Shown: piece by piece, positions 4,165 through 30,479 of the stretch
Layout: each line of letters starts with the position of its first letter
Numbering within the stretch: position 1 is the first letter of the stretch
Assembly: GCA_947629265.1 (NCBI GenBank)
Contig: CANRCZ010000008.1
Location: forward strand, 14,751 to 46,750
Direction of reading: 5' to 3'
DNA from: an uncultured Bacilli bacterium
GTDB lineage: Bacteria > Bacillota_I > Bacilli_A > RF39 > UBA660
Length of the DNA: 32,000 bases
The notes under the pieces: model-generated
Databases searched by the model: none
Told to the model about the DNA's origin: nothing
The model's input: only the letters and a program-made list of their open reading frames with translations
Translations under genes and position numbers: made by a program

Positions 4165-4196
4165 TTAAAAAAAATGATAGTTTTATTTATCATTTT
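4165..4196 (-). terminator. Rho-independent terminator after CDS 4212..5048
   Basis: 8-bp stem aaatgata (4172-4179) / tatcattt (4188-4195), followed on the minus strand by a run of about 8 T. Confidence 0.6.
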
Positions 4197-4211
4197 CTTT
4201 AGTAATTATAG

Positions 4212-5048
4212 TTATGCTAATATCCAAGCTTCTTGACCAAATTCATCTATTCCTTTACCTGTAGTAAGGACACTAGATTTTAGAACAATTATAGGTCGAA
4301 TACCGAATGCTAGTTCACCATGAGGAAGAATAACAGTATTCCCTGTAGGATTCAGATATAAAAGACGATTATCAGAAGCATATTCATTAGATTCATTGGC
4401 TAACCAATAAAGTGTATTAGTTTGTCGTAAATCGTTTGTTCCAGCAAGTTTTTCCACATCTTCTTTAGTTATTGAGCGTGCTGAAATTGCATACGAATTC
4501 TTATATTGATTAGCTCTTTCATTTAACAATCTTATACTCTCACTTGGATATGAATCTTCTTTTATACTATGATAATAACATTCAGGCTGACCAGCATGAA
4601 TTATAGTTACTGTTTTAGTACTTGTATTTGTTTCAAGCACACGCCAACCTTGATACTTTGATAAAGCATCTTTATAACATGCTACACTTGTATTTTTACT
4701 TGTATTAGCTTTATATCCACCAAACTGTCCTTGTTCTGTTGGTTTTCCTAATGTTTTATCCCATGTTCCAGCATTATAATTTACAAAATCTCCCTCTTTT
4801 ACCACATCAGCTAAATAGGCATATTTATAAACTTTCGCTTTTTCTTCCAAATCATCAACTTTAACAGCCTTACCTATTAAGTCATCTAACGCTTGTTTTA
4901 CATTCATCGTTTGACCATTTCTAGTATAACTTACACTTTCGCTTGTAAAACTACCTACTGCATAGCTTACCCCTCCCATTAAGATAACCCCTATAAATAT
5001 GCCTATTATAAGTTTACTTTGTCTTTTTAAATAACTCATTTTTTTCAT
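4212..5048 (-). CDS. Membrane-anchored extracytoplasmic protein, paralog A (DUF6273-like signature; function unknown)
   Basis: 278 aa with SD GAGGGG upstream. The N-terminus has a basic stretch plus a hydrophobic helix, LIIGIFIGVILMGGVSYAV. Blocks shared with 5636..6493: SESVSYTR.GQT..VKQALD.LIGKAVKVDDLEEK, FGGY, GWRVL, HAGQPECYYH, YWLA, FG[IF]RP..VLK, LTTGKGIDEF.QEAW. Confidence 0.8.
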   Translation of the reverse strand: MKKMSYLKRQSKLIIGIFIGVILMGGVSYAVGSFTSESVSYTRNGQTMNVKQALDDLIGKAVKVDDLEEKAKVYKYAYLADVVKEGDFVNYNAGTWDKTLGKPTEQGQFGGYKANTSKNTSVACYKDALSKYQGWRVLETNTSTKTVTIIHAGQPECYYHSIKEDSYPSESIRLLNERANQYKNSYAISARSITKEDVEKLAGTNDLRQTNTLYWLANESNEYASDNRLLYLNPTGNTVILPHGELAFGIRPIIVLKSSVLTTGKGIDEFGQEAWILA

Positions 5049-5068
5049 TTTTTACCCCTCTTTCTAAC

Positions 5069-5111
5069 AGGACATTTTATTTATATTATAATTATATAAA
5101 TTTTATGTCCT
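5069..5111. promoter_or_regulatory. Inverted repeat (candidate operator) in the divergent intergenic region of module A
   Basis: aggacat (5069-5075) and atgtcct (5105-5111) flank an AT-rich core. On the minus strand this core contains TATAAT-like hexamers for the 4212..5048 gene. Confidence 0.4.
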
Positions 5112-5162
5112 CTTGTCAACTGTTTATTTAAAAACTGTGAGAATATATTTTTGAGGTAAAAC

Positions 5163-5606
5163 ATGAAAAATAGAATAAAAGATTTAAGAGAAGATAGAGA
5201 TTTATTACAAAAGGATATTGCCCTTTTTCTAAATATAACAATTAGACAATACCGTAGAATTGAAAAAGGTGAAAATGAGCTATCTTATAATAGTTTAATA
5301 AAATTATCAGAGTTCTATAATACGTCAGTTGATTATATTTTAGGAATTATCAATAATATTGAACCCTATCCTAAAAATAAAAGTTATAATAAAATAAAAG
5401 ATCTTCGTATAGAAAATAACCTATATCAAAAAGATATTGCTAAAATATTAAATATAACTCAACCTGATTATTCCGTTATCGAAAGCAATAAAAATGAATT
5501 ATCATACGATGGATTAATCAAACTTTCTAATTTTTATAACACATCTATTGACTATTTACTTGGTTTAACCGATATTAAACAGCCATACAATAAAAAGGTA
5601 GAATAA
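5163..5606 (+). CDS. XRE-family transcriptional regulator with two tandem HTH domains, paralog A
   Basis: 147 aa with SD GAGG. Two copies of the Cro/C1 pattern (DLRE...L.QKDIA..LN.T...Y..IE....ELSY..LIKLS.FYNTS.DY.LG). Confidence 0.85.
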   Translation: MKNRIKDLREDRDLLQKDIALFLNITIRQYRRIEKGENELSYNSLIKLSEFYNTSVDYILGIINNIEPYPKNKSYNKIKDLRIENNLYQKDIAKILNITQPDYSVIESNKNELSYDGLIKLSNFYNTSIDYLLGLTDIKQPYNKKVE

Positions 5607-5629
5607 AAGATAAGCGTCGCTTATCTTTT
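5606..5629. terminator. Bidirectional hairpin terminator between convergent genes
   Basis: Near-perfect palindrome aaagataagcg-t-cgcttatcttt with T-rich tracts on both strands. It starts at the TAA of 5163..5606. Confidence 0.55.
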
Positions 5630-5635
5630 AATTTA

Positions 5636-6493
5636 TTATTGTGGAGCTACTAAAGTCCATGCTTCTTGTTTAAATTCATCTATTCCTTTACCTGTTGTTA
5701 GTATTCCCTCTTTTAAGACTACAACTGGACGAAAACCGTATGAAAGATCGCTACTGGAACCATTGATATTACCTGCATTTCCCACGAGATACAAACGAGC
5801 ACTATCTCCTGCATCGGCTAGCCAATAATATGCTCCTGTATTTCTTAAATCATTACTAGTAACCTTTATATCGTTAGTAATTTCTAAAGCTTCATTATAA
5901 TCAAGGGCATGAGCTGATTCGGCGAATTCATTCTTATATTCTTTTGTTGCTTGGTCATTTAATAATTTCACACTTGCCGCACTATATCCATTAGTACTAT
6001 TATATCCGTGATAATAACATTCAGGTTGGCCTGCATGGACTAGGTAAACTTGCTTATTTTCAACTTTTAATACACGCCAACCTTTCAAACTTGTTGAGCC
6101 CCAACTAGACACAAGACCACAAATTACACTTTCTCCTTTACTGTGACCCTCAGTATATCCACCAAACTTTCCTTGTTCATTTGGAATAGCTACAGTCGAT
6201 TTCCAATCACCGGCATCGTAGGCCACATAATCACCGACTTTTGCTACGCTAGCTAAATAATCAACGCCCATATTTTTATAATAAGCCACTTTTTCTTCTA
6301 AATCATCAACTTTAACAGCCTTACCTATTAACTCATCTAACGCTTGTTTAACCGTCTTAGTTTGACCATCTCTAGTATAACTTACACTCTCACTAGATAA
6401 ATTATCTACAGCATAGCTGACCCCTCCCATTAAGATAACACCTATAAATATACCTATTATCAACCTACTACTACTTTTAATTAATCTTAACAT
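5636..6493 (-). CDS. Membrane-anchored extracytoplasmic protein, paralog B (DUF6273-like signature; function unknown)
   Basis: 285 aa with SD GAGGTGA. Same N-terminal anchor and conserved blocks as 4212..5048; the central part is diverged. Confidence 0.8.
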   Translation of the reverse strand: MLRLIKSSSRLIIGIFIGVILMGGVSYAVDNLSSESVSYTRDGQTKTVKQALDELIGKAVKVDDLEEKVAYYKNMGVDYLASVAKVGDYVAYDAGDWKSTVAIPNEQGKFGGYTEGHSKGESVICGLVSSWGSTSLKGWRVLKVENKQVYLVHAGQPECYYHGYNSTNGYSAASVKLLNDQATKEYKNEFAESAHALDYNEALEITNDIKVTSNDLRNTGAYYWLADAGDSARLYLVGNAGNINGSSSDLSYGFRPVVVLKEGILTTGKGIDEFKQEAWTLVAPQ

Positions 6494-6504
6494 TTTATCA
6501 CCTC

Positions 6505-6549
6505 ATACACGTATTATTTATATCTACATTATATAAATTTTCCGTGTAT
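6505..6549. promoter_or_regulatory. Inverted repeat (candidate operator) in the divergent intergenic region of module B
   Basis: atacacg (6505-6511) and cgtgtat (6543-6549). Position and span (about 45 bp) match the module A repeat, but the half-site sequence differs. The shared core is attatataaatttt. Confidence 0.4.
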
Positions 6550-6587
6550 TAGTCAATACTTTTTTATTAATATGAGAAAATTAACCT

Positions 6588-7031
6588 ATGAGAAATAAAA
6601 TAAGAGATTTAAGAGAAGATAATAACTTATACCAAAAAGATATCGCTAAAATATTAAATGTTACTCAACAACAATATTCAAGAATTGAAAAAAACGAAAA
6701 TCAACTTTCTTATGATAAATTGATTATTCTAGCGGATTTCTATAATATATCAACTGATTACATTTTAGGACTTACAAGCAATAAAAAAATACATACTAAA
6801 AATAAAAGTTATAACAAAATAAAAGATCTTCGTATAGAAAATAACCTATATCAAAAAGACGTCGCTAAAGTATTAAATATAACTCAACCTGATTATTCTG
6901 TTATCGAAAGCAATAAAAATGAACTATCATACGATGGATTAATCAAACTTTCCAAATTCTATAACACGTCGATCGATTACATACTTGGTTTAACTGATGA
7001 TAAAAAACCATACACAAAAGAAGCTACTTAA
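6588..7031 (+). CDS. XRE-family transcriptional regulator with two tandem HTH domains, paralog B
   Basis: 147 aa. The second HTH domain is nearly identical to that of 5163..5606, while the first is clearly diverged. Confidence 0.85.
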
Positions 7032-12596: not shown

Positions 12597-12914
12597 GCTA
12601 TTTTTTTAATTTATGTGTTAGATATGAGGTAGCTTCTTTATTCTTTGATTAAATCTTATCTTATAACGTGTTTAGTAGTGTTTTAATTTGTGATAAATTT
12701 AATATAAAAACACTTGATACTTTGCAAGTGTTTAGAATAATAATACTCTTAATTATTGTGATTATAAGCGTATATTTAATAAAAATACCATGTGTATGGA
12801 ATAAGTGTTGATATAATGATTATGTGTGCACTTGCTCATAATTTCTATTTATTCAATAATAAAAAGAGAATTACCTCTTTTTATTATATTTTTACCTTTT
12901 TATAGTATTAATTT

Positions 12915-13025
12915 AAAAGAAAAATCACCTAACTCAGCAATGATTTAGGTGATGCACATTATTATATGGCAACACTCAACGTGCTAAATTGAATATTCCC
13001 TCTTATCTATTCAAGTTTCCTTGAC
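12915..13025 (-). ncRNA. Predicted antisense sRNA, orphan copy (no cognate peptide ORF upstream)
   Basis: Runs from the promoter at 13032..13060 to hairpin atcacctaa (12924-12932) / ttaggtgat (12945-12953) plus a T-run on the minus strand. Confidence 0.4.
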
Positions 13026-13031
13026 ATATTC

Positions 13032-13060
13032 ATAATACCATAAAAATAAGCTTTTATCAA
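13032..13060 (-). promoter_or_regulatory. Antisense sRNA promoter, unit 1
   Basis: The minus strand reads TTGATA (13055-13060), a 17-nt spacer, then TATTAT (13032-13037) preceded by TGg. Confidence 0.55.
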
Positions 13061-13163
13061 GGCATTTTGGCTACTAATTCAATTTTATTTTTTGTATAGC
13101 CTACTATTTTTTTAATTGCTATATAAGTTGTTTTAAATTTGTGATAAATTTATTACAAAACTA

Positions 13164-13193
13164 TTGTGTTACAAACATTTTTTTTGGTACAAT
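13164..13193 (+). promoter_or_regulatory. Promoter of small-peptide mRNA, unit 2
   Basis: TTGTGT (13164-13169), an 18-nt spacer, then TACAAT (13188-13193) preceded by TGg. Confidence 0.55.
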
Positions 13194-13257
13194 ATTTGTA
13201 GGAACATTTAATAGTTGGGTGATTGCCTCTATATTTATAAATTGGAGGTGGTGCTTT

Positions 13258-13341
13258 ATGAGTAAAAAGGATTTTCTAATCTCTGTATTATTAATTATAA
13301 TACTTTTACTTATAACACTACTATTTGTAGTGTTGAACTAA
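13258..13341 (+). CDS. 27-aa hydrophobic peptide, candidate type I toxin (MSKKDFLISVLLIIILLLITLLFVVLN)
   Basis: GGAGGTGGTG lies 4 nt before the ATG. The peptide has a charged N-terminus and a single TM-length hydrophobic stretch. A paralog sits at 13680..13763 with synonymous and conservative differences. Confidence 0.6.
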   Translation: MSKKDFLISVLLIIILLLITLLFVVLN

Positions 13342-13448
13342 AAAAATCACCTAACTCAGCAATGATTTAGGTGATGCCAAATTCATTAGGCAACACTCAA
13401 CGTGCGAAATTGAATGTTCCTTTTTTATTTTATTCAAGTTTCCTTGAC
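13339..13448 (-). ncRNA. Predicted antisense sRNA, unit 2 (candidate antitoxin)
   Basis: Promoter at 13455..13483. The hairpin 13346-13354 / 13367-13375 is followed on the minus strand by 7 T that overlap the peptide stop codon. The RNA is fully complementary to the peptide mRNA 3' UTR. Confidence 0.5.
13392..13426 (+). terminator. Rho-independent terminator of peptide mRNA, unit 2
   Basis: Stem aacactcaa (13392-13400) / ttgaatgtt (13410-13418) with one mismatch, then cc + TTTTTT. Confidence 0.5.
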
Positions 13449-13454
13449 ACATTC

Positions 13455-13483
13455 ATAATAACATAAAAACAATATTATATCAA
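13455..13483 (-). promoter_or_regulatory. Antisense sRNA promoter, unit 2
   Basis: The minus strand reads TTGATA (13478-13483), a 17-nt spacer, then TATTAT (13455-13460) preceded by TGt. Confidence 0.55.
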
Positions 13484-13585
13484 GGTATTTTGGTCACTAA
13501 TTGAATTTTATTTTTTGTATCACCCGCTGTTTTTGATTGCTGTATAAGTTGTTTTAAAATTGTGATAAATTTATTACAAAAACTA

Positions 13586-13614
13586 TTGTGTTACAAACAC
13601 TTTTTTGATACAAT
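13586..13614 (+). promoter_or_regulatory. Promoter of small-peptide mRNA, unit 3
   Basis: TTGTGT (13586-13591), a 17-nt spacer, then TACAAT (13609-13614) preceded by TGa. Confidence 0.55.
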
Positions 13615-13679
13615 GTCTGTAGGAACATTTAATAAGTTGGGTGCTACCTCTTATCTTTATAGATTGGAGGTGATGCTTG

Positions 13680-13763
13680 ATGAGTAAAAAAGATTTTTTA
13701 ATCTTTGCTTTATTCATTATAATCCTTTCATTAATAGCATTACTTTTTGTAATTCTAAAATAA
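13680..13763 (+). CDS. 27-aa hydrophobic peptide, candidate type I toxin (MSKKDFLIFALFIIILSLIALLFVILK)
   Basis: GGAGGTGATG lies 4 nt before the ATG. Length and architecture match 13258..13341. Confidence 0.6.
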   Translation: MSKKDFLIFALFIIILSLIALLFVILK

Positions 13764-13870
13764 AAGTGCACCTAACTCAAACAGTTTGAGTTAGATGCCA
13801 AACAAACATTAGGTAACACTCAACACTGCATATTGAATGTTCCTTTTTATTTTATGCAAGTTCCCTTGAC
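13758..13870 (-). ncRNA. Predicted antisense sRNA, unit 3 (candidate antitoxin)
   Basis: Promoter at 13877..13905. The hairpin is ctaactcaa (13772-13780) / ttgagttag (13786-13794). The T-run begins a few nt after the stem, so termination looks weaker than in unit 2. Confidence 0.45.
13815..13848 (+). terminator. Rho-independent terminator of peptide mRNA, unit 3
   Basis: Stem aacactcaa (13815-13823) / ttgaatgtt (13833-13841), then cc + TTTTT. Confidence 0.5.
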
Positions 13871-13876
13871 ATATTT

Positions 13877-13905
13877 ATAGTACCATAAAAATAATCTTTT
13901 ATCAA
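13877..13905 (-). promoter_or_regulatory. Antisense sRNA promoter, unit 3
   Basis: The minus strand reads TTGATA (13900-13905), a 17-nt spacer, then TACTAT (13877-13882) preceded by TGg. Confidence 0.5.
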
Positions 13906-13942
13906 GGTATCTATATTAAATTTATAAAATTGATAAATCTAA

Positions 13943-21445: not shown

Positions 21446-21483
21446 TGTCACCACCTGGATTTAGAACTTATATGTGTTTATAC

Positions 21484-21509
21484 AAAAAAAGAAATTGGCT
21501 ACCAATTTA
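21484..21509 (-). terminator. Hairpin terminator/attenuator at the 3' end of the large ncRNA, upstream of oapA
   Basis: The minus strand reads aaattgg-tag-ccaattt followed by CTTTTTTT (stem at 21492-21498 / 21502-21508). Confidence 0.55.
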
Positions 21510-22028
21510 GTTAACTTTACGCCTTAGGTCAAGTAGAATTTCTCTAGCTTTTACATCACGTTACCATGATTGCGGTTCCCCTTTAAAAAAGCTAATACGA
21601 TGTATCTATAATTTGGATATATCAGTATCACTTGATCGCCACTTAGTACGTACTGCAATCCTAAAAAGGTTTCACTCTAGGAGATTTCCCCACCATTATA
21701 TCTATTATTAGTTCTTTTTTGCAGATAGCGTTTCAAATTGCAATAGCTGTAAACTTTAAGGCCTTAAAGTTTATAACCTGATCAATTATCCCCACTATCC
21801 ACGCAAGACAAGCTATCTACTTAAAAGTAGCAATCTAAAAAAATTTAGGTTATAAATACTGGAACAATGTTCGTATGCCGTTACGGTTGCCCAGCATTCT
21901 ACCTCTTAATATACACCCCAAACTGGGCGTAAGAAGCATATATCAAGAGTTGTATAGGTATGCTTTTAACGGATTTTTAGCCCCGTCTTCCTAATAGATA
22001 TCAATGACTAGAATAATGTGCCAATTCT
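21484..22028 (-). ncRNA. ole: Large structured ncRNA, probable OLE (ornate, large, extremophilic) RNA
   Basis: About 545 nt with no ORF and visibly higher GC than its surroundings. A near-consensus promoter lies upstream, a terminator lies at the 3' end and the oapA-like gene follows directly. Many local helices are present, e.g. aagcata..tatgctt, aactttaa-ggcc-ttaaagtt, ctac-ttttaa-gtag. Not verified against a covariance model. Confidence 0.6.
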
Positions 22029-22034
22029 TGATTA

Positions 22035-22063
22035 ATTATACCAAATTTTTTTGATTTGGTCAA
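22035..22063 (-). promoter_or_regulatory. Near-consensus promoter of the large ncRNA
   Basis: The minus strand reads TTGACC (22058-22063), a 17-nt spacer, then TATAAT (22035-22040) preceded by TGg. Confidence 0.6.
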
Positions 22064-22158: not shown

Positions 22159-22728
22159 TTACATATTTTTGATGTATTGAAACGTTTCAGTATCGACAAA
22201 TTCTGAAACATTTTTATTATCTTTTTCCATTTTCTTTATATCGATAGCTTTATATAATGTTTCATCTAATGGTGGTAAAACTTGTGCTAGATAGTTATGA
22301 TCGTAATCTTTTTCATTATTAATTTTATTTTTATATTGTTCTTTTATTTTTCTAAATTTGCCACTTTCATCATAAAGAATAGTAGATTTTTTAATAAAAT
22401 CACGTCTTAATACGTCTGATGGGTTTAAATCCATATGTGTGTATTTGCTATCTGTATCTGAATATAAGCATATTTTAACTCCATAGTCAGCGATATTTTC
22501 TTTTGATTGGTATGATAAGTTGTATTTTTTAAGTTGTTCATCATAGTCATCGTTGATATCTCTTACTATGGTAATATCTATAACACCACTATCGGTATTA
22601 TCTAAATTAACAAAAGGTGTAAAATAGATACATTTAACATTTTCATCCTTTTTAAATTCAAATATTAATCTTGCTAGTTCGTCACATAATTTATCTCTTT
22701 GTTTTTCAGTTATATTTATAGTTTGCAT
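22159..22728 (-). CDS. Hypothetical 189-aa protein, last gene of the cassette (weak, degenerate nucleotidyltransferase-fold resemblance)
   Basis: SD AGGAGG. The segment VKCIYFTPFVNLDNTDSGVIDITIV loosely resembles the hhhFGS..RG....SDhDhhh strand-turn of minimal NTases. However, GS and the second Asp are not conserved, so function is unassigned. Confidence 0.6.
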   Translation of the reverse strand: MQTINITEKQRDKLCDELARLIFEFKKDENVKCIYFTPFVNLDNTDSGVIDITIVRDINDDYDEQLKKYNLSYQSKENIADYGVKICLYSDTDSKYTHMDLNPSDVLRRDFIKKSTILYDESGKFRKIKEQYKNKINNEKDYDHNYLAQVLPPLDETLYKAIDIKKMEKDNKNVSEFVDTETFQYIKNM

Positions 22729-22772
22729 TTTTATACCTCCTAATTAACTATAGTTATATCATTTTTTAAATC

Positions 22773-23993
22773 TTATCTATGTTTAATATTGATTTTATGA
22801 TCAATAAAGTTTAATTGTTCATATGGAACATATATTACTTTACCCCCTTTTGGATTAATTTTTCCTTTGTTAAAAACAATCCAAATAACGTTCATAGGAA
22901 TATTAGGCATACTTGCATACCCATCAGTAAATATTATTTTGTTTTCTACTCTTCTACTAAAGGAGTTGACTGCTACATTAAAGTCAGTTCCTCCACGACC
23001 TTTAAATACTATATTGTCAATATCTTCTTCGGTTCTTATTTCCTGAAAGCCATAAAATTCTGTATCAAAACACCCGACTTTTAATTTTGAATATTTTAAA
23101 ATATTTTTACATTCTCTTAAAAAGTTTCTTAATAATTGATCATTTATAGATTCACTCGTATCTAATAAAATTTCTGTTTCTGTCATTGGTCGTTCTTCTA
23201 AGTTAGCGATTACAACACCATCTTCAATGTAAGCATTTTTGTAAGACCAATCAACATCGTATTGGATTGTCTCTCTTAAAACGTATCTCCAATCAATTAT
23301 CGGTTTTGCTTTTCCTATCTCATATATAATTCTTTGTTCACTATTAGTATATACTCCAGCTTTTGTTACCTGTTCAGATAAAATTTGCTTTAAAGCTTTT
23401 AAATTTTCCTTTTTTTCTTCTAAATTCTTATTAAAAGCACATTGCTCTCCCATCTTACTAATTTTATCTATTTCTTGTTGTAATTCATCAGATTGAGATT
23501 CTTCTTTTAACCTTTTTACTGCATCCTGCCACATACTATGAGTATCATAATCCTCATCATATTTTTGTTCATCAGAAAAACCATATTCTTGATTTTGTTG
23601 TTTTTCTTTAAATAATTTATCATATAATTGTTCTGAATTGTAATTTATTGCTTCTTCGATATCTACGTTACCTTTAGGGATTTTCAAACCATCTCGTTTT
23701 AAAAATTGGTTTATTACAGCATCTGTTGCTATATTCCAAAGTTTAAGATCTTTATTTTCGCTTCTTAATATATGATTGAATGCTATATGGCATACCTCAT
23801 GAGTGATGAAAAAAATTTGCTCATCTAGTTTAAGTTTTTTTAAAGATTCCGGATTATAATATATCGTTTTACCATCAGTAGCTGCTGTTTTTGTTTCTCT
23901 ATCTTCTTTATAGTTTACATTTGCTAATACACTTCCAAAGAAAGGATATTTTACAAGCATTTTTCTTTTTATTGATTCAATATCAAAATTCAT
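22773..23993 (-). CDS. Zn-metallopeptidase-like (HExxH) N-domain fused to a VWA-like domain (DUF2201/COG3864-type)
   Basis: 406 aa. N-terminal region: YPFFGSVLANV...TAATDGKTIYYNP...FFITHEVCHIAFNH (HExxH at 23787-23804) ...WNIATDAVINQ. C-terminal region: ILLDTSESI (MIDAS-like DxSxS) ... GRGGTDFNVAV ... IIFTDGYA. Confidence 0.8.
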   Translation of the reverse strand: MNFDIESIKRKMLVKYPFFGSVLANVNYKEDRETKTAATDGKTIYYNPESLKKLKLDEQIFFITHEVCHIAFNHILRSENKDLKLWNIATDAVINQFLKRDGLKIPKGNVDIEEAINYNSEQLYDKLFKEKQQNQEYGFSDEQKYDEDYDTHSMWQDAVKRLKEESQSDELQQEIDKISKMGEQCAFNKNLEEKKENLKALKQILSEQVTKAGVYTNSEQRIIYEIGKAKPIIDWRYVLRETIQYDVDWSYKNAYIEDGVVIANLEERPMTETEILLDTSESINDQLLRNFLRECKNILKYSKLKVGCFDTEFYGFQEIRTEEDIDNIVFKGRGGTDFNVAVNSFSRRVENKIIFTDGYASMPNIPMNVIWIVFNKGKINPKGGKVIYVPYEQLNFIDHKINIKHR

Positions 23994-24087
23994 AGTTTAC
24001 TCCTCAAAACAGATTTTGAAACATTAGTATCAGGTGAAAACTCTATAATGATAGGTGCAACAATTGAAACATATTTTTTTAATATGT

Positions 24088-25983
24088 TTATTTTTTTAGT
24101 ACCCATCTTTTTATTTCTCCTGAATTAGCTAATCTAGCTTCAGCAATTAATTCTAATTTATATTCATCGTCACTAGCCCATAGTTGATCAAATAATGCTT
24201 CAAACTCAGCTCCTAGATTTGTTGTCACGAAATTTCTAACTTTTGTCATATTTTCTTCATCAACTTGAGAAAGTCCCATTGTCGTAGCATATCTTTGAGC
24301 AGTATTTAATAATTCAATATCTGTTTCACTATAGCAATCATTAATCACATCATCTAATGTTATAACTGGTTGATCACAGAAACCTACAAATTCTTCGGTT
24401 ATATCTTCCCCAACTAAAGATCTCAACATTGCTGGTTTTCCTGTAGCATAGAGCATTTTAGAAGCCATTTCCCATTTTCTTGGATCGGCATTAGGTGTTT
24501 CACCGTTATATTCACTCCTTAATGTTTCACCATTTTTATAAGCTATATATGAATAAATGGCTGGATGAATGTTATTTTCCCTTGCCCATTTTAGCCATCC
24601 CTCGGTTGTTGTTTTTATATAAACATGTGCAAATCTATTAAATAGTGGTTCAGCTAATTGATTGGCTGACAAAGAATCTTTCATCTCGTTTCCAGCTGCG
24701 ACAATTCTTGCATTTTTTGGTAGTTGCCACATTCCATTTACCTCTCTATCTAAAACAATATTAAAAGCTATTCCTTGAATACTAGGTAAAGCATTTGTTA
24801 TTTCATCAAAGAAAACGATATGTAATTTATCGGGTTCGGCTTCACATTTAGTTTCTAGTTTTTTTAACCATGTAGGTTTAATATCGAACATTTCACCTGT
24901 TTGTTGATTATAAACGCTTTTGCCATTTAGACTTTCAGGTGTTGCATTTCTTAAATATATAATTACACTATCAGGGTCAATTTGCTTTACTCTTGCACTT
25001 TTCCCCTCACTTGATGCACCATGTAAAAATACGGCTACTCCACTTTCGATTGCCCCTTTAATAATTTCTTCTTCGCTTACTTGATCTAAATTTAATCCAT
25101 AAGGATTTCTTCTACCTTTTATCTGTTGTTTTTCTTCAAAAGTTTTCTTTTCTTTTGGTGATATTTGCACTATATCTTTTGCAAAATTATTATTTAAAAA
25201 ATCATACATCGCGGTCTTTTTAAAATCGCCATAATAATTACAATCATTGCAAAATCTTATTCCTGATGCGATTAAATTTTTACATAACATAATTTTAGCA
25301 TTACTATCAATATACCATTTAAGAGGAGATACCTCTATCCAAACTTGATTTCCATTTTTATATTTTTTCCCGTTTGAAAGTTCACGTTCATACTCACCTA
25401 TATAACACGTAGTTATATATTTTCTTCCATCGTATTCACATTCCCTATATTCCTCTACCCCATTATTAAATGGAGATGAATTCTTATTATTTTTTCTAAA
25501 ATTTCCTGTATATTTTCTTCCAGTTTCTTGTAATTGACCACAAAATAATGCTTTTTCCAATTCATGTTCCATAGATTCACTAACAGCATATTGTGGATAT
25601 TCTCCATATTCTATTTCAAGAAATCCATTTTTTCCCGTAACTCCGTTGTTCATTAGGATATTAATATCATCAGAAAATTTGAAGACAGGCCGAATTCCGC
25701 CTGTGTCAAAATCAGTAAAAACATTGTCATGTGAACCAGTCTCATTAACACTATCGACAGCTCCTTTAATATTAGTTGATGATAAATAATACCATCCCGC
25801 ACGACCTTTTAAAGATTTATCATAATCTACATGACTCCAATCATAACCATTTGCTCCTAAAATAATTGCAAAATCTGTCAATGCACACTTGCTACCCATA
25901 TCGCGTATTAACTCACTTTTATTAGGGCCAAAAACTTGGTCTGCAGTAAGTAATGTAAATTCACCATTTAAGTTAAAATTCAT
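24088..25983 (-). CDS. DUF6273-like N-terminal domain fused to a MoxR/AAA_5-type AAA+ ATPase
   Basis: I moved the start to the ATG at 25983 (MNFNLNGEF...; SD GAGGTG), giving 631 aa. N-terminal ~285 aa: LLTAD...TDFAIILGA...WYYLSS...GGIRPVF, EYGEYPQY, PLKWYID, FLNNNFAKDI. ATPase: Walker A GASSEGKS (24997-25020), Walker B IVFFDEI (24800-24819), sensor-1 RIVAAGNE, PLFNRF. Confidence 0.8.
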   Translation of the reverse strand: MNFNLNGEFTLLTADQVFGPNKSELIRDMGSKCALTDFAIILGANGYDWSHVDYDKSLKGRAGWYYLSSTNIKGAVDSVNETGSHDNVFTDFDTGGIRPVFKFSDDINILMNNGVTGKNGFLEIEYGEYPQYAVSESMEHELEKALFCGQLQETGRKYTGNFRKNNKNSSPFNNGVEEYRECEYDGRKYITTCYIGEYERELSNGKKYKNGNQVWIEVSPLKWYIDSNAKIMLCKNLIASGIRFCNDCNYYGDFKKTAMYDFLNNNFAKDIVQISPKEKKTFEEKQQIKGRRNPYGLNLDQVSEEEIIKGAIESGVAVFLHGASSEGKSARVKQIDPDSVIIYLRNATPESLNGKSVYNQQTGEMFDIKPTWLKKLETKCEAEPDKLHIVFFDEITNALPSIQGIAFNIVLDREVNGMWQLPKNARIVAAGNEMKDSLSANQLAEPLFNRFAHVYIKTTTEGWLKWARENNIHPAIYSYIAYKNGETLRSEYNGETPNADPRKWEMASKMLYATGKPAMLRSLVGEDITEEFVGFCDQPVITLDDVINDCYSETDIELLNTAQRYATTMGLSQVDEENMTKVRNFVTTNLGAEFEALFDQLWASDDEYKLELIAEARLANSGEIKRWVLKK

Positions 25984-25997
25984 ATTGCACCTCACTT

Positions 25998-26040
25998 TTT
26001 TTAAAATTATCTATGTTTAATATTGCTTTCATCATAAGTA
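25998..26040 (-). repeat. Relic copy of the 3' end and downstream spacer of the peptidase-VWA gene
   Basis: 19 nt, ttatctatgtttaatattg, are identical at 26007-26025 and 22773-22791 (the last codons and stop of 22773..23993). Flanking similarity is partial. Confidence 0.6.
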
Positions 26041-26068
26041 AATTTTAATTGGCCATATTTTAATACAC

Positions 26069-27169
26069 TTATTTTTTCAGTATCCTTTTTTTAGTTTTTC
26101 CTGAATTAGCAAGTCTAGCTTCAGCAATTAATTCTAATTTATATTCATCGGCACTAGCCCATAATTGATCAAATAATGCTTCAAACTCCGCTTCTAGATT
26201 TGTTATTACGAAATTTCTAACTTTTGCCATATTTTCTTCTTCTATTTGTTCTAAATCATCTTGTTCTTCTAGTTCATTGGATATTTTAGTTTTTGAACGT
26301 GATGATAACATATTATCACTAGCGATATCAAGTTTTTGATAAGTTTTGCTAGGAATTATTTCTTTAGCAAAACAATTATTTAAAAAGTAATATATTGTTG
26401 TATTTTTAAAGTCAACATCATCTATATCAAAGTCATCAAAGTCATAATATTCAATAAACTTTATACCAGAAGCTAGAGAAATATTGCTTAATACTATTTC
26501 GTCTTCTGTATCGATTAACCATTTAATTGGTTCTACTTTAATCCATTTTTTGTCTCCCTCATTACAAATTTCATAATTTGATAAAGTTTTAGAGTTATTT
26601 GCCTCTAGACATTCAACAAGTATGTATTTTTCACCCTTGTATTCATATTCACGATGCTCTCTTCCTTTAAATAAACCATCTTCCATTCTTATATCAGTAG
26701 TGTATGTCTTTCCAGTTTCATGTAATAGACCTAATTTATATCTTATAAATAGTTTGTTTGATAATTTTTTATCAACTACGTATTGAGGATATTCACCATA
26801 TTCTACTTGTAGTACGCCATCTGCTATCTCTTTTGGATTAGAATAATCATTAGGAAATTTATCTAATGGTATCGCTGGTCGAATGTTAAAATGATTACTA
26901 TCAAGAAAGCATCCCCATTGATTGTCATTAAAACAAGCTTCTACAACATATTTATCTTCATTAAAAGATCTAGTTGCCCAAGGACCAAAGAAAGTTTTAC
27001 GTTCATTTTTAGAGTCTGAGGTACTAACACCACCATCAGCTCCTAAAATAATAGCGAAATCAGATAATCGACTAATATATCCCAATTCTTTTATGATTTT
27101 TATTTGATCGTCTCCCCAAATTTCATCTGCAGTAAGTAATGTAAATTCACCATTTAAGTTAAAATTCAT
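26069..27169 (-). CDS. DUF6273-like protein, ATPase-less paralog of 24088..25983
   Basis: I moved the start to the ATG at 27169, giving 366 aa. The N-terminal ~20 aa and C-terminal ~55 aa (EENMAKVRNFVITNLEAEFEALFDQLWASADEYKLELIAEARLANSG) are nearly identical to the ATPase fusion. The central domain is a diverged DUF6273-like module (SDFAIILGA, NIRPAIPL, EYGEYPQY, PIKWLID, FLNNCFAKEI). There is no Walker motif. Confidence 0.8.
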   Translation of the reverse strand: MNFNLNGEFTLLTADEIWGDDQIKIIKELGYISRLSDFAIILGADGGVSTSDSKNERKTFFGPWATRSFNEDKYVVEACFNDNQWGCFLDSNHFNIRPAIPLDKFPNDYSNPKEIADGVLQVEYGEYPQYVVDKKLSNKLFIRYKLGLLHETGKTYTTDIRMEDGLFKGREHREYEYKGEKYILVECLEANNSKTLSNYEICNEGDKKWIKVEPIKWLIDTEDEIVLSNISLASGIKFIEYYDFDDFDIDDVDFKNTTIYYFLNNCFAKEIIPSKTYQKLDIASDNMLSSRSKTKISNELEEQDDLEQIEEENMAKVRNFVITNLEAEFEALFDQLWASADEYKLELIAEARLANSGKTKKRILKK

Positions 27170-27233
27170 ATTGCACCTCATTTCTCATATTATAACAAAT
27201 TAAGTTATCTAATAAATTTATTCTATTAATCGA

Positions 27234-27992
27234 TTATTTTTTTCTTTTTACTAATGTAGGACCTTTTTCTTCTAGAGTTTCTTTTATAATTTCGATACCA
27301 AGATCGTTATAACTATCTTTTAATTTTTCATCTAATTTACCTTGTTGATAGTATTTTAAATATTTTTCTTCATTGTATCCTAAATCAAAATAAAGATATA
27401 AATTACTATTTAAAGTATCTAATTGTTGTTTATCATCAACTTTTACAACCTTAAATTCTTTTTCATCAATTTTATTATTTTCTTGCTTTTTAATTTTTAA
27501 ATCTTCTAACACTTGTTTTTCTTCTAATAATTGTTTCTTTAAAAATTCAAGTTCATTATTAACACCTTTTTCTTCTTTTAAAGATCTTTTATATTGTCTA
27601 TATGTATCAAATTCAAGCAAAGCTGCAACTGGTAAAAATAAAATAGACGAAATCATACTAAGGAATTGACCACTACTAAAAGTACCAAATCTTGTATTTA
27701 TTTGAGTTGAAAATGAATTAGATCCTGTTAAACCGTAAAATAATAAATTAGCACCAACGGTTGTAATTAATAATGTCATAGGAAGAAAGAAAGGGATATA
27801 ATGTTTCATATTGTTCTTTTTATACAATCTACTTTTTCTTTCTAATTCTATTGATTTATCTTCTAACGTTTCGATTAAATTTTCTTGAACTAGTATATCA
27901 TCTAATCCATCATAATATTCTGCTACCTTTTTTTCACCGTTTTCATCAATTATTATTACTTTGTTATCAACATAGATATATTCTTTATTCAT
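27234..27992 (-). CDS. Two-TM membrane protein with C-terminal coiled-coil, first gene of the cassette
   Basis: 252 aa with SD GGAGAGG. TM helices IPFFLPMTLLITTVGANLLFYGL and FLSMISSILFLPVAALLEF are followed by the charged heptad-like stretch ELEFLKKQLLEEKQVLEDLKIKKQENNK. Confidence 0.75.
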   Translation of the reverse strand: MNKEYIYVDNKVIIIDENGEKKVAEYYDGLDDILVQENLIETLEDKSIELERKSRLYKKNNMKHYIPFFLPMTLLITTVGANLLFYGLTGSNSFSTQINTRFGTFSSGQFLSMISSILFLPVAALLEFDTYRQYKRSLKEEKGVNNELEFLKKQLLEEKQVLEDLKIKKQENNKIDEKEFKVVKVDDKQQLDTLNSNLYLYFDLGYNEEKYLKYYQQGKLDEKLKDSYNDLGIEIIKETLEEKGPTLVKRKK

Positions 27993-28017
27993 AAAATAAC
28001 CTCTCCTCGCGCCTAGT

Positions 28018-28026
28018 ATTATACCA
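28018..28026 (-). promoter_or_regulatory. Extended -10 promoter element for the five-gene cassette
   Basis: The minus strand reads TGgTATAAT. The -35 is weak (CTTTAA/TTTAAA). It lies between the pheT terminator and the SD of 27234..27992. Confidence 0.45.
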
Positions 28027-28073
28027 TAAATAACAAAAATTTAAAGTATTTTATATCCAAAAGTTTTAAAATA

Positions 28074-28103: not shown

Positions 28104-30479
28104 TTATTTACGTAATTTAGAATTGGTTTTGGTTTCAACCTCTTTAATTACCTTATTCATTAAATTAGTTATTTCATCATTTTGTAAAGTATGATCCATA
28201 TCTGATAAAGTTAATTTAAACGCTAATGACTTTTCATCTTCTGAAACATTTTCACCCTCGTATAAATCAAATAGTGAAATATTTGTAAGTAATTTACCAC
28301 AAGCTTTTTTAATAACATCCATAATATCTTTACTAGGTGTATCCTTTTTAGTTACAAACGCTAAATCTAAATTACTACTAGGATATTTAGATAGTTCCTT
28401 ATATTTAATATTACCCGTTTTAATTTCATATAACTTAGTCAAATTTAACTCTAAAACATAATTATCATCTTTACTTACCTTAGGATTTACCCTACCAAAG
28501 TAACCTAGTTTAGTACCATTTACGATAATTTCAGCACTGCGGTATGGATGCATATCACTAGGTATATTATCAGTTACACTAAAGGTATAGCGGTTATTTA
28601 ATCCTAAATAATTAAGCAAATTCTCTAAAATACCTTTAATAACATAGAAATCAACATTTATATTTTTATTCATCCAAGTAGTATTAACGTACTTACCTTG
28701 CATTAAAATACCTAATTTAAGATCTTCTTGATCAGTATCATAGTAAGTAGTACTTATTTCATATATCATGATATCTTGAATATCACGAGCTTTATTATAA
28801 TCAGCCACTTTAATTAAACTTGGAATAAGTGAACGTCTACATATACTTTTATCTAGACTCATCGGTTTATCTAGTTTAACTAATTCACCATCATCATATC
28901 TAAACATATTAGCTTCTTTAGGACTTACTAAAGTATAAGTTCTAACCTCATTTAAGCCTAAACCTCTTAAATGTCTTGATATATCCTTATAGTATTTAAT
29001 AAATGGTGAATAACTACCCTTTTTATCAGTTAAAACTGGTAATTTAGCTTCGATTTTTTCATAACCATAAAGTCTACCTACCTCTTCGATTAGATCTTCT
29101 TTAATAGCGACATCAAGTCTTCTATTAGGAATAGTTACAATGTAGTTATCGTCTTTATATTCGTAGTTAAAGCCTAAACGATCGAAAGCATCTTTAATAT
29201 CAGCATCGGTTATAGTAGTACCTAGTACCTTACATATTTTTTCTTTAGTTATAGTTGCTACTTTATCTTTTTTCTCTATTTCATCATAGATAACGGTATC
29301 TTTTAATATCTTAGCATCAGCATATTTTTCTAGTAAGTAACATGCTCTATTTAAAGCTTTTAAAGTGTATTCATAGTTTAATCCTCGTTCGTATCTAACA
29401 CTAGCTTCGCTTCTTAAATCGAGATTGATAGATGTATATCTGATATTGTATGGTTCAAAGATGGCACTTTCGATTAAGATCGTTTTAGTATTTTCATCGA
29501 CCTCAGTATTTTCACCACCCATAACTCCAGCGATACATATTGGTTTAGTTCCATCGGTTATGACGATATCATCTTTATTTAAAGTTCTCTCTTTAGAATC
29601 TAAAGTGATGATCTTTTCATTATCTTTAGCCATTCTAACTAGTATTTTATCTTTAACTTTGTCTTTATCGAAGAAATGAAGCGGTTGACCATATTCTAAC
29701 ATGACGTAGTTAGAAATATCGACAACGTTATTAATTGAACGCATACCAGCTGATTCCAGTCTTCTTTTAATAAAGGCTGGTGATTCTTTAATAACGACAT
29801 CGGTAGCCATTTTAGCGGTATAGTATTTACATTTATCAGTACCAATTTCCAATTTAAAATGGTTATTGATCGAATCATCTATTTCATGATAATCAGCATC
29901 TGGTAAGGTTACTTTTTTATTTAAAACTGCTGCTACCTCGTAGGCAAAACCGATATGATTAGTACAATCGATAGCGCGGTTTGGATTTAAGTCTAGGTTG
30001 TATAGTGCATCATTTAATCCTGCATAGATATTATAATCCATTCCCACTTGAGCATCATCATCTAATTCGCATATTCCTTTACTGTATGTTAAATCGTTTT
30101 TTTCTTCTAATCCTAATTCAAATAACGCACAGATCATACCTTTTGAGGTAACACCTCTAATCGTACTTTCTTTAATAACAAAATCACCTGGTAAGATAGC
30201 TCCTACTTTGGCGACGATTACTTTTAAACCCTCTCTTACATTAGAAGCTCCACAGACGATCTGTAAAGTTTCATCACCAATATCAACTTGACATACGTGT
30301 AAGTGATCACTATCAGGATGGTTTTTAACCTCTTTAATTAAACCGATAACGAGATTATCGATCCTTTTATTTAAGACAGCTTCAACGTTGACACCAGCAT
30401 TAGTAATTTTAGTTGCTAAGTCGTTTAAGTCAACACCATCTAAATCGACATATTCGCCAACCCAGTCCATGTTTATCAT
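28104..30479 (-). CDS. pheT: Phenylalanine--tRNA ligase beta subunit
   Basis: 791 aa with an N-terminal tRNA-binding OB domain, B3/4, B5 and a C-terminal anticodon-binding-like domain. The ATG overlaps the pheS TGA (ATGA at 30476-30479). Confidence 0.95.
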   Translation of the reverse strand: MINMDWVGEYVDLDGVDLNDLATKITNAGVNVEAVLNKRIDNLVIGLIKEVKNHPDSDHLHVCQVDIGDETLQIVCGASNVREGLKVIVAKVGAILPGDFVIKESTIRGVTSKGMICALFELGLEEKNDLTYSKGICELDDDAQVGMDYNIYAGLNDALYNLDLNPNRAIDCTNHIGFAYEVAAVLNKKVTLPDADYHEIDDSINNHFKLEIGTDKCKYYTAKMATDVVIKESPAFIKRRLESAGMRSINNVVDISNYVMLEYGQPLHFFDKDKVKDKILVRMAKDNEKIITLDSKERTLNKDDIVITDGTKPICIAGVMGGENTEVDENTKTILIESAIFEPYNIRYTSINLDLRSEASVRYERGLNYEYTLKALNRACYLLEKYADAKILKDTVIYDEIEKKDKVATITKEKICKVLGTTITDADIKDAFDRLGFNYEYKDDNYIVTIPNRRLDVAIKEDLIEEVGRLYGYEKIEAKLPVLTDKKGSYSPFIKYYKDISRHLRGLGLNEVRTYTLVSPKEANMFRYDDGELVKLDKPMSLDKSICRRSLIPSLIKVADYNKARDIQDIMIYEISTTYYDTDQEDLKLGILMQGKYVNTTWMNKNINVDFYVIKGILENLLNYLGLNNRYTFSVTDNIPSDMHPYRSAEIIVNGTKLGYFGRVNPKVSKDDNYVLELNLTKLYEIKTGNIKYKELSKYPSSNLDLAFVTKKDTPSKDIMDVIKKACGKLLTNISLFDLYEGENVSEDEKSLAFKLTLSDMDHTLQNDEITNLMNKVIKEVETKTNSKLRK

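Follow-up and report, generated by a model that had tools for sequence, protein, structure and literature searches.

The question raised by the locus studied here is whether five closely spaced genes of an uncultured Bacilli bacterium form a single functional unit and, if not, which of them belong together and what they could do. The genes (g1 to g5) lie on the minus strand of a 32,000-nucleotide (nt) stretch of contig CANRCZ010000008.1 (assembly GCA_947629265.1, positions 14,751 to 46,750; this whole stretch is called the window), between pheS-pheT and the locus of the OLE RNA. A preliminary description, made from the sequence alone, took all five for one cassette and a candidate defence system, in which DUF6273-like domains would sense, an AAA+ ATPase and a peptidase-VWA protein would switch and a transmembrane protein would act as effector. 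This description was confirmed in part: its account of open reading frames (ORFs) and motifs held, while its five-gene unit did not, and both a connection to diversity-generating retroelements (DGRs) and the signs of reduction in the window copy had been overlooked. As judged from the loci compared below, the conserved unit is g2-g4 (22773-27169), not five genes, and the N-terminal module of the g3 ATPase is a DGR variable region in relatives. The genes, in order of reading, are as follows (aa, amino acids).

27234-27992, minus strand: g1, 252 aa, protein with two transmembrane segments; adjacent gene outside the conserved module
26069-27169, minus strand: g2, 366 aa from the ATG of MNFNL; paralogue of the N-terminal module, without AAA+ core
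24088-25983, minus strand: g3, 631-aa fusion of a ~275-aa N-terminal module, a MoxR-like AAA+ ATPase and a helical C-terminal region
22773-23993, minus strand: g4, 406 aa, Zn-metallopeptidase (HEVCH) and VWA domain (MIDAS motif DTSES)
22159-22728, minus strand: g5, 189-aa orphan; adjacent gene outside the conserved module

The ATPase and its neighbours in related loci

Gene neighbourhoods were compared in 75 genome loci around ATPase homologues (numbered with the prefix L). Only two other genes were recurrent, one for a VWA-peptidase (67 loci) and, between it and the ATPase gene, one for a protein of about 130 aa, here called sm130 (55 loci). No homologue of g1 or g5 was detected by tblastn in any of the 75 loci, and both genes have homologues of their own elsewhere. 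For g1 there were 127, of which those inspected lay in other contexts, without ATPase or VWA genes; g5 matched five proteins among 5.8 billion, the window's own sequence included, which makes it a very rare family, and one of its homologues sits between lysS and dcuC. The five genes thus could not be upheld as one cassette, and g1 and g5 are unrelated neighbours of the g2-g4 module. The idea of the transmembrane protein as effector fell for the same reasons, g1 being linked to the module nowhere else and a possible separate promoter standing before g2. An NTase-like strand claimed for g5 was unsupported by any profile, no match having been obtained in four libraries (Pfam, PADLOC, NCBIfam and PHROGs).

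Hydrophobic segments were found twice in g1 (about aa 66-88 and 107-129), in agreement with its description as a two-transmembrane protein, and nowhere in g2-g5, which are therefore predicted to be cytoplasmic. Genes downstream of g1 in other genomes were considered as g2-like proteins and rejected, as they showed no similarity. In L083/L084 (5548-10190), a g1 homologue is found among several unannotated genes adjoining a gene for a type IV secretion system (T4SS) coupling protein; one neighbour encodes a protein of 373 aa in which a zinc-ribbon-like CxxC...CxxC unit occurs six times.

More than 2,385 full-length homologues of g3 were found, mostly in gut metagenomes or metagenome-assembled genomes (MAGs) labelled Bacilli, 'Tenericutes' or Clostridia. 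Among the best 120, identity ranged from 56 to 72% with 95-100% of the query covered; 115 were 600-660 aa in length. The ATPase/VWA pair lay between rpsR and rpmE in L001; in L003 the module was inside a conjugative element (TrbL, PrgI, VirB4-like ATPase, CHAP, serine recombinases), and in L006, L012 and L037 it followed pheT, either directly or with two other genes in between, much as in the window, where g1 intervenes. Because the same pair recurs in many differing neighbourhoods, including a conjugative element, the accessory nature proposed for the whole set holds for the g2-g4 core, which is also mobile. The position just downstream of pheS-pheT in four genomes is either an old one in this clade or a preferred insertion site. 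PheT proteins in the pheT-linked genomes are only 37-55% identical where compared (L006 and L012; pheS-pheT of the window, 28104-30479), and the OLE RNA was absent from beside the module in L001, L003, L006, L012, L016, L037 and L041.

The motifs reported for g3 (GASSEGKS, IVFFDEI, RIVAAGNE and NRF) and g4 (HEVCH and DTSES) were all present in the translations, those of g3 falling in one segment.

24604-25086, minus strand: AAA+ core of g3 (Walker A GASSEGKS, Walker B IVFFDEI, sensor-1 AAGN, NRF arginine), read from the sequence; near-invariant in 115 homologues

Every family-invariant residue was retained in g3, the ATPase part of which matched phrog_1297 (1.8e-45). For g4, which starts 94 nt downstream of g3 and retains both the HExxH and the MIDAS motif, matches were obtained to Pfam DUF2201_N (3.4e-38; 132.3 bits against a cut-off of 23.2), Pfam DUF2201 (2.5e-13; 50.7 bits against 26.4) and phrog_1314 (1.2e-68). 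An AlphaFold model of full-length g3 (pLDDT 77.7) was matched by Foldseek to MCM subunits (E ~1e-6) and, within the NorQD complex, to NorQ (probability 1.0, target TM-score 0.39-0.40), which places g3 in the helix-2-insert clade of AAA+ proteins, a clade that includes MoxR. The model and the VWA partner together support the label 'MoxR-like', MoxR not being separated in this way from other members of the clade. Pfam, PHROGs and Foldseek thus agreed with the pairing of a MoxR-like ATPase and a DUF2201 peptidase-VWA partner given in the preliminary description. A sequence search of PDB returned nothing useful for g3 and nothing for g4, and nothing functional was found in the literature on DUF2201 and COG3864.

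The sm130 protein (L016, 11917-12309, and the other loci that encode it) has a weak likeness to the part of AAA proteins between Walker B and sensor 1 (Pfam AAA, E 0.015) and no Walker A, and its start overlaps the ATPase stop codon. The VWA-peptidases of Bacilli (L012, 12332-14617; L001, 12284-14209; others) carry a long Q/S/N/G-rich low-complexity insert between peptidase and VWA domains; it has internal repeats and differs greatly in length from protein to protein (433-761 aa for the whole proteins). This insert, found in most Bacilli relatives, is missing from g4 and from the clostridial versions; clostridial relatives also lack sm130, so that a two-gene form is a normal state of the module.

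Retroelements in relatives and the state of the window copy

At 14 loci a gene for a 340-370-aa reverse transcriptase (RT; RVT_1, 1.2e-16) was located directly upstream of the ATPase gene and was itself preceded by a gene for a 196-aa bAvd-like protein (1.4e-5), with an 80-103-nt repeat of ATPase codons ~68-100 between the two. Mismatches between this template repeat (TR) and the variable region (VR) in the ATPase gene fell at template adenines in 12/12 cases in L016 and in L025, 10/10 in L020 and in L023, 14/14 in L041, 11/11 in L050 (gapped alignment), 11/12 in L056, 9/11 in L018 and 7/9 in L003 (binomial P for the adenine bias 2e-7 to 5e-4). Both TR and VR end in GTTCGCCCAG(C/A)TT, and a CCCC...GGGG hairpin then follows the VR; the shared end and the hairpin are the expected homing elements of a DGR. 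The RT of relatives also contains, as read from the sequence, the motif LGNxSSQ, which we take to be a mark of DGR reverse transcriptases. An RT, an Avd-like protein and an adenine-specific TR/VR pair were found together in L003, L016, L018, L020, L023, L025, L041, L050, L056 and L086. When L003 was compared with L010 (the same element in two MAGs), the ATPase genes differed at 12 of 1,893 nt, 11 of these differences lying in nt 230-263, and column entropy among 115 homologues peaked at aa 71-90 (about 2.5 bits, against 0.1-0.3 bits in the ATPase core). From the concentration of mismatches at template adenines, and from that of the L003/L010 differences in the VR, it follows that the N-terminal module serves in relatives as the variable region of a DGR. 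A sensory role of this module, as proposed earlier, thereby gained strong indirect support.

An RT was present within 10 kb in 19 of the 75 loci. Many loci with no RT nearby retain the homing sequence, the hairpin and a GC-rich VR (0.45-0.55 against 0.32 for the gene), which suggests that they are diversified in trans. Tandem ATPase copies were frequent, with five in L039 (4337-17585) and four in L043 (8530-17992). The variable regions are identical in all four copies of L043; the five of L039 all differ, each with homing sequence and hairpin, suggesting that one DGR may serve several ATPase targets in this array. The variable region of L056 (10213-10292) contains an in-frame stop codon, and in several other loci (L027, L034 and L060) the ATPase gene is split in two; nonsense variants made by the DGR and caught in consensus assemblies, or assembly errors, would explain both. 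As a candidate for Avd, sm130 was rejected, since it resembles an AAA fragment while the bAvd-like protein is encoded by the 196-aa gene upstream of the TR. DGR variable regions have been reported to be systematically C-terminal (PMC8144416); here the VR occupies aa ~68-100 of ~630.

The corresponding segments of the window, and two further traces of former genes, are listed below (IMH, initiation of mutagenic homing sequence).

25159-25983, minus strand: aa 1-275 of g3, the N-terminal module; its homologue in relatives is the target of the DGR
25675-25788, minus strand: VR equivalent of g3 (aa ~66-103, ending GGIRPVF), located by alignment; without IMH and without hairpin
23990-24106, minus strand: sm130 remnant of 38 codons (usually ~130 aa), translation MGTKKINILKKYVSIVAPIIIEF...; its first ~23 residues align with the sm130 N-terminus
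25996-26058, minus strand: what is left of a second VWA gene (its 3' end), lying between g2 and g3; 82.5% identical at the nt level to 22762-22824, with a translated match to g4 aa 385-406

Compared with the DGR targets of L003, L016 and L020, g3 is 58-64% identical over aa 1-631, and the VR-equivalent segment aligns. No RVT_1/RT homologue or Avd was found in the window (best tblastn RT hit, E 0.41; Pfam survey), and comparison of the window with itself yielded no TR/VR pair with adenine-specific mismatches. The VR equivalent of g3 has a GC content of 0.36, against 0.45-0.55 in likely active relatives with IMH and hairpin; at the position of the homing site g3 reads ATTCGGCCTGT where relatives read GTTCGCCCAGC, and the hairpin is missing. 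In g2, whose VR equivalent falls at about 26860-26975, the IMH is borderline (two mismatches), likewise without a hairpin. By BLASTP, g2 is made up of an N-terminal module, 35% identical to that of g3, and a tail that corresponds to the final ~60 residues of the ATPase (aa 571-631) with 80% identity. Together with the two remnants and the insert-less g4, the lost IMH and core-less g2 point to descent of the window copy from a tandem ATPase-VWA array through deletions.

Two short contigs, each from a different further metagenome assembly, carry parts of the locus at 99.9-100% identity: g1 with the beginning of g2 in one, and in the other the stretch from the end of g4 through g5 to the OLE RNA. 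Look-ups of the exact sequences of g1 and g5 gave only such short contigs, and those of g3, g4 and a flanking gene gave no record. Judging by the related assemblies, ERZ27249643 and ERZ27249360, the source contig appears to stem from a rabbit-gut data set. As g2-g4 are intact, their motifs are kept, the two-gene form is normal and these segments recur, the copy is probably streamlined and of fixed specificity, not dead, and the locus is read as a retroelement-less, partly reduced derivative.

Possible function and relation to known systems

Our preferred reading, to which we assign a probability of roughly 0.6, is that g2-g4 are a chromosomal, DGR-less and reduced copy of a mobile conflict or recognition module of gut Bacillota. 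Such a module comprises a cytoplasmic protein whose first ~275 residues would bind a ligand and whose remainder is a MoxR-like ATPase of the helix-2-insert clade, usually a ~130-aa protein resembling a degenerate AAA fragment, and a partner with HExxH metallopeptidase and VWA/MIDAS domains. In relatives, adenine-specific mutagenic homing by the DGR rewrites some 30 codons of this N-terminal part (aa ~68-100), and the variable surface would bind a ligand, most likely a phage, plasmid or host protein. RavA-ViaA, CbbQ-CbbO and NorQ-NorD are MoxR-VWA pairs that remodel proteins; like them, the AAA+ ring and its VWA partner may convert binding into remodelling of the bound target, which the attached metallopeptidase may afterwards cleave, the whole acting as a conflict or recognition system. 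In the window the specificity would be frozen, and g2, with its retained C-terminal tail, may give the same machine a second fixed binding specificity. By analogy, the conflict setting would follow from arguments put forward for DGR-linked MoxR-vWA systems by Kaur et al. 2020 (PMC7159879) and by Dore et al. 2024 (PMC10907252). A further-reaching proposal, which we regard as tentative and rather improbable, is that the family is a self-reprogramming, protein-level targeting machine, in which a retroelement rewrites the binding surface of a cytoplasmic AAA+ remodeller whose VWA partner carries a metalloprotease, and that the window represents a later stage, a copy now outside its element and without the retroelement, in which two specificities persist frozen, that of g3 and that of the ATPase-less g2. 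If this were true, evolution within a population could equip a conjugative element, or its host, to seize and cleave intracellular targets that are new to it, such as phage proteins or defence proteins of a recipient.

Several points weigh against the preferred reading. The function is one that we infer from domain content and the DGR link, and a homologous ATPase/peptidase-VWA pair of lytic phages has been proposed as an assembly chaperone, not as a defence (PMC7824862). A search of g1-g5 against PADLOC-DB v2 gave no family at E ≤ 0.1 (the search comprised these five proteins, their neighbours not being systematically tested for defence genes), which agrees with the earlier statement that no known defence model fits. 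A DGR outside the visible 32 kb, using another homing sequence, could still have g2 or g3 as its target. The Pfam AAA_5 profile scored 17.1 bits on g3, below its gathering score of 22, so that 'MoxR' is a class assignment by similarity. For the N-terminal modules of g2 and g3, Pfam DUF6273 (PF19789) gave no match at E ≤ 1. The AlphaFold2 model of g3 aa 1-275, a compact unit (pLDDT 86.8, pTM 0.87), had no significant Foldseek match in PDB (best E 0.09) or BFVD (best E 0.06), a DUF6273 viral protein appearing only at E 0.19; with a confident model and no significant structural match, a C-type-lectin fold is unconfirmed.

The label 'DUF6273-like', given earlier to g2 and g3, thus had no direct Pfam match, but the similarity was visible through relatives. 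According to the literature, DUF6273 is a C-type-lectin-like domain targeted by DGRs, and its C-terminal end holds the VR (10.1101/2024.10.15.618418; see also PMC10743442). Of 21 N-terminal modules, 3 matched it, all below threshold (best E 0.0011). In sub-threshold matches of relatives, aa 50-104 of L016 align to the C-terminal end of the profile and aa 238-287 of L003 to its beginning, which suggests that both ends of the 275-aa module may jointly form the Pfam domain, with a beta-rich insert between them. PF19789 is precomputed on five g3 homologues, and a homologue of g2 (P0246, E 1e-71) scores 26.3 bits over the aligned region against a cut-off of 23.5. The label is therefore remote and probably right. 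The module itself is widespread (1,338 clusters at 50% identity), and many of its carriers are standalone proteins of 270-400 aa like g2.

The main rival to a role in conflict is that the pair is a chaperone and co-chaperone for assembly of a mobile-element structure (virion, conjugation apparatus or surface protein), in which the variable module would pick the client and would not be an immune sensor. The strong matches to phrog_1297 and phrog_1314 fit such a role, as do the adjacent pair in the N4-like phage KP8, the separate matches of the two proteins to 686 and 567 phage records and the occurrence of the pair within a conjugative element beside T4SS genes. A MoxR and metallopeptidase-vWA pair of jumbo phages has been described as chaperone and co-chaperone, with a proposed role in virion assembly (Iyer et al. 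2021, PMC7824862). However, the fusion to a DGR module is nearly missing from viral contigs (a single full-length relative among 2.9 million, in the order Avd-RT-ATPase-sm130-VWA), many copies stand alone in chromosomes with no element genes close by, and a hypervariable client-binding surface fits poorly with a fixed assembly client; on balance we consider this explanation unlikely.

It is less likely still that the window copy is a decaying, functionless remnant of a former multi-copy, DGR-linked array. The loss of IMH and hairpin, the GC-poor VR equivalent, the reduction of sm130 to 38 codons, the VWA 3' leftover between g2 and g3, the lack of an AAA core in g2 and of the low-complexity insert in g4 would all be expected of such a remnant, but the ORFs of g2-g4 are unbroken and each has its Shine-Dalgarno site, g3 has kept all family-invariant residues and g4 its HExxH and MIDAS motifs, sm130 and the insert are missing from clostridial relatives as well, and segments of the locus persist at near identity in two other metagenome assemblies. 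The original proposal of one five-gene defence cassette, with DUF6273-like modules sensing, the ATPase/VWA-peptidase as switch and g1 killing or protecting, has the lowest probability of all and is considered very unlikely: the co-directional, tightly spaced genes with their Shine-Dalgarno sites and the promoter-like site ahead of them are compatible with it, and its sensor idea agrees with the DGR link, but g1 and g5 occur in 0/75 related loci and have homologues elsewhere (127 for g1) without ATPase or VWA genes, g2 may have its own promoter and PADLOC gave no match.

The preliminary description had also stated that nothing of this kind was known. This was too strong, since DGR-diversified C-type-lectin sensors with MoxR/vWA proteins, and fusions of such lectin domains to AAA proteins (CLec-AAA), have been described computationally (PMC7159879, PMC10907252), and phages are known to encode a MoxR protein paired with a metallopeptidase-vWA protein (PMC7824862). 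The MoxR-vWA ternary systems of these two computational studies likewise combine a MoxR-type ATPase, a VWA partner, a peptidase and a DGR-hypermutated domain of C-type-lectin type, which has also been proposed as a cytoplasmic sensor in biological conflict. In them, however, the variable domain is C-terminal, usually on the vWA protein or a separate target, whereas here it is N-terminal and on the ATPase; their trypsin- or caspase-like peptidase is on a third protein, VMAP, whereas here HExxH is on the VWA protein (DUF2201); and their hosts are multicellular cyanobacteria, actinobacteria and Chromatiales, whereas those found here are small-genome gut Bacilli and Clostridia. Also unlike the ternary systems, at least one DGR-bearing locus of the present family is on a conjugative element, and the window copy is without a DGR. 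No VMAP protein was seen around the module, although no search with a VMAP profile was made; the only recurrent third gene was sm130, which is truncated in the window.

The CLec-AAA targets of candidate phyla radiation (CPR) bacteria similarly join an AAA-type ATPase to a DGR variable domain within a single polypeptide (cited in PMC10907252; Midasin/AAA in PMC5758913); they differ in lineage and domain order, and no DUF2201 partner is reported for them, distinctions drawn from their published description. ATPase, AAA, MoxR or vWA targets are not mentioned in two DGR surveys (PMC8144416, PMC11661182). In the phage pairs (phrog_1297/phrog_1314; N4-like and jumbo phages) a homologous ATPase core and a peptidase-VWA protein stand side by side, but the ATPases are of ~350 aa, lack the N-terminal variable module and are ~25-29% identical. 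RavA-ViaA, CbbQ-CbbO and NorQ-NorD share the AAA+ ring and the VWA/MIDAS partner, and the g3 model resembles NorQ; they lack a variable module, their VWA proteins carry no peptidase domain, and their clients are known and metabolic. The DUF6273 receptor-binding proteins of phages with a DGR (tentaclins, PMC10743442; Toutatisvirus targets, 10.1101/2024.10.15.618418) share this remote domain family and also the placing of the VR, which is C-terminal within the DUF6273 region, but are extracellular virion proteins, whereas the domain considered here is predicted to be cytoplasmic (no signal peptide or transmembrane segment) and is fused to an ATPase.

Until now, predictions of DGR-diversified intracellular sensors tied to MoxR/vWA proteins have come mainly from multicellular cyanobacteria, actinobacteria and purple sulfur bacteria. 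Particular to the present case are the location of the variable domain on the ATPase itself, the phage-type peptidase-VWA partner and the presence of at least one DGR copy on a conjugative element, in a family that is very abundant (thousands of homologues) in Bacillota of the animal and human gut. Being compact (three to six genes), the system could offer a practical entry point to the ligands of cytoplasmic DGR targets and to the action of MoxR-VWA pairs, for which the window supplies a natural 'DGR-off' state and an ATPase-less paralogue as points of comparison. The family connects two active fields, the window copy itself being without a retroelement.

Transcription signals and other features of the window

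As had been described, the five ORFs are co-directional on the minus strand (ORF coordinates and upstream sequence), with gaps from g1 to g5 of 64, 85, 94 and 44 nt, computed from the coordinates, and a GAGG-type Shine-Dalgarno site before each start. Their placement was likewise as described, with pheS and pheT upstream and the OLE RNA and oapA downstream. The signals concerned are the following.

28018-28045, minus strand: promoter-like site (TTTAAA-16-TGgTATAAT) upstream of g1, from a promoter scan
27189-27197, minus strand: extended -10 element (TGtTATAAT) directly upstream of g2, read from the sequence; consensus match only
21479-22040, minus strand: OLE RNA, 291 bits

The promoter proposed before g1 was present as a site, but TG-extended -10 sites were no commoner in the window than in shuffled sequence (43 observed, 44.4 expected). 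The extended -10 element at 27197-27189 would permit transcription of g2-g4 separately from g1, which is possible. What had been called the pheT terminator is a weak hairpin, an AT-rich 6-bp stem and then a T-run, which exists 3' of pheT but was not called in a terminator scan of the window. An NCBIfam search gave only noise. Two repeats lie elsewhere in the window. At 12909-13910, in a stretch without long ORFs, a 422-bp unit is repeated 2.4 times (82% matches), flanked by a 264-aa ORF and a 632-aa protein with only a sigma-70 region-4 match. At 4193-5594 and 5626-7019 there are diverged copies of a gene pair (66.6% nt identity over ~1.4 kb), one member of the pair being a minus-strand ORF of 278 or 285 aa that matches nothing in Pfam, the other a plus-strand ORF of 147 aa, with further internal repeats of ~209 nt.

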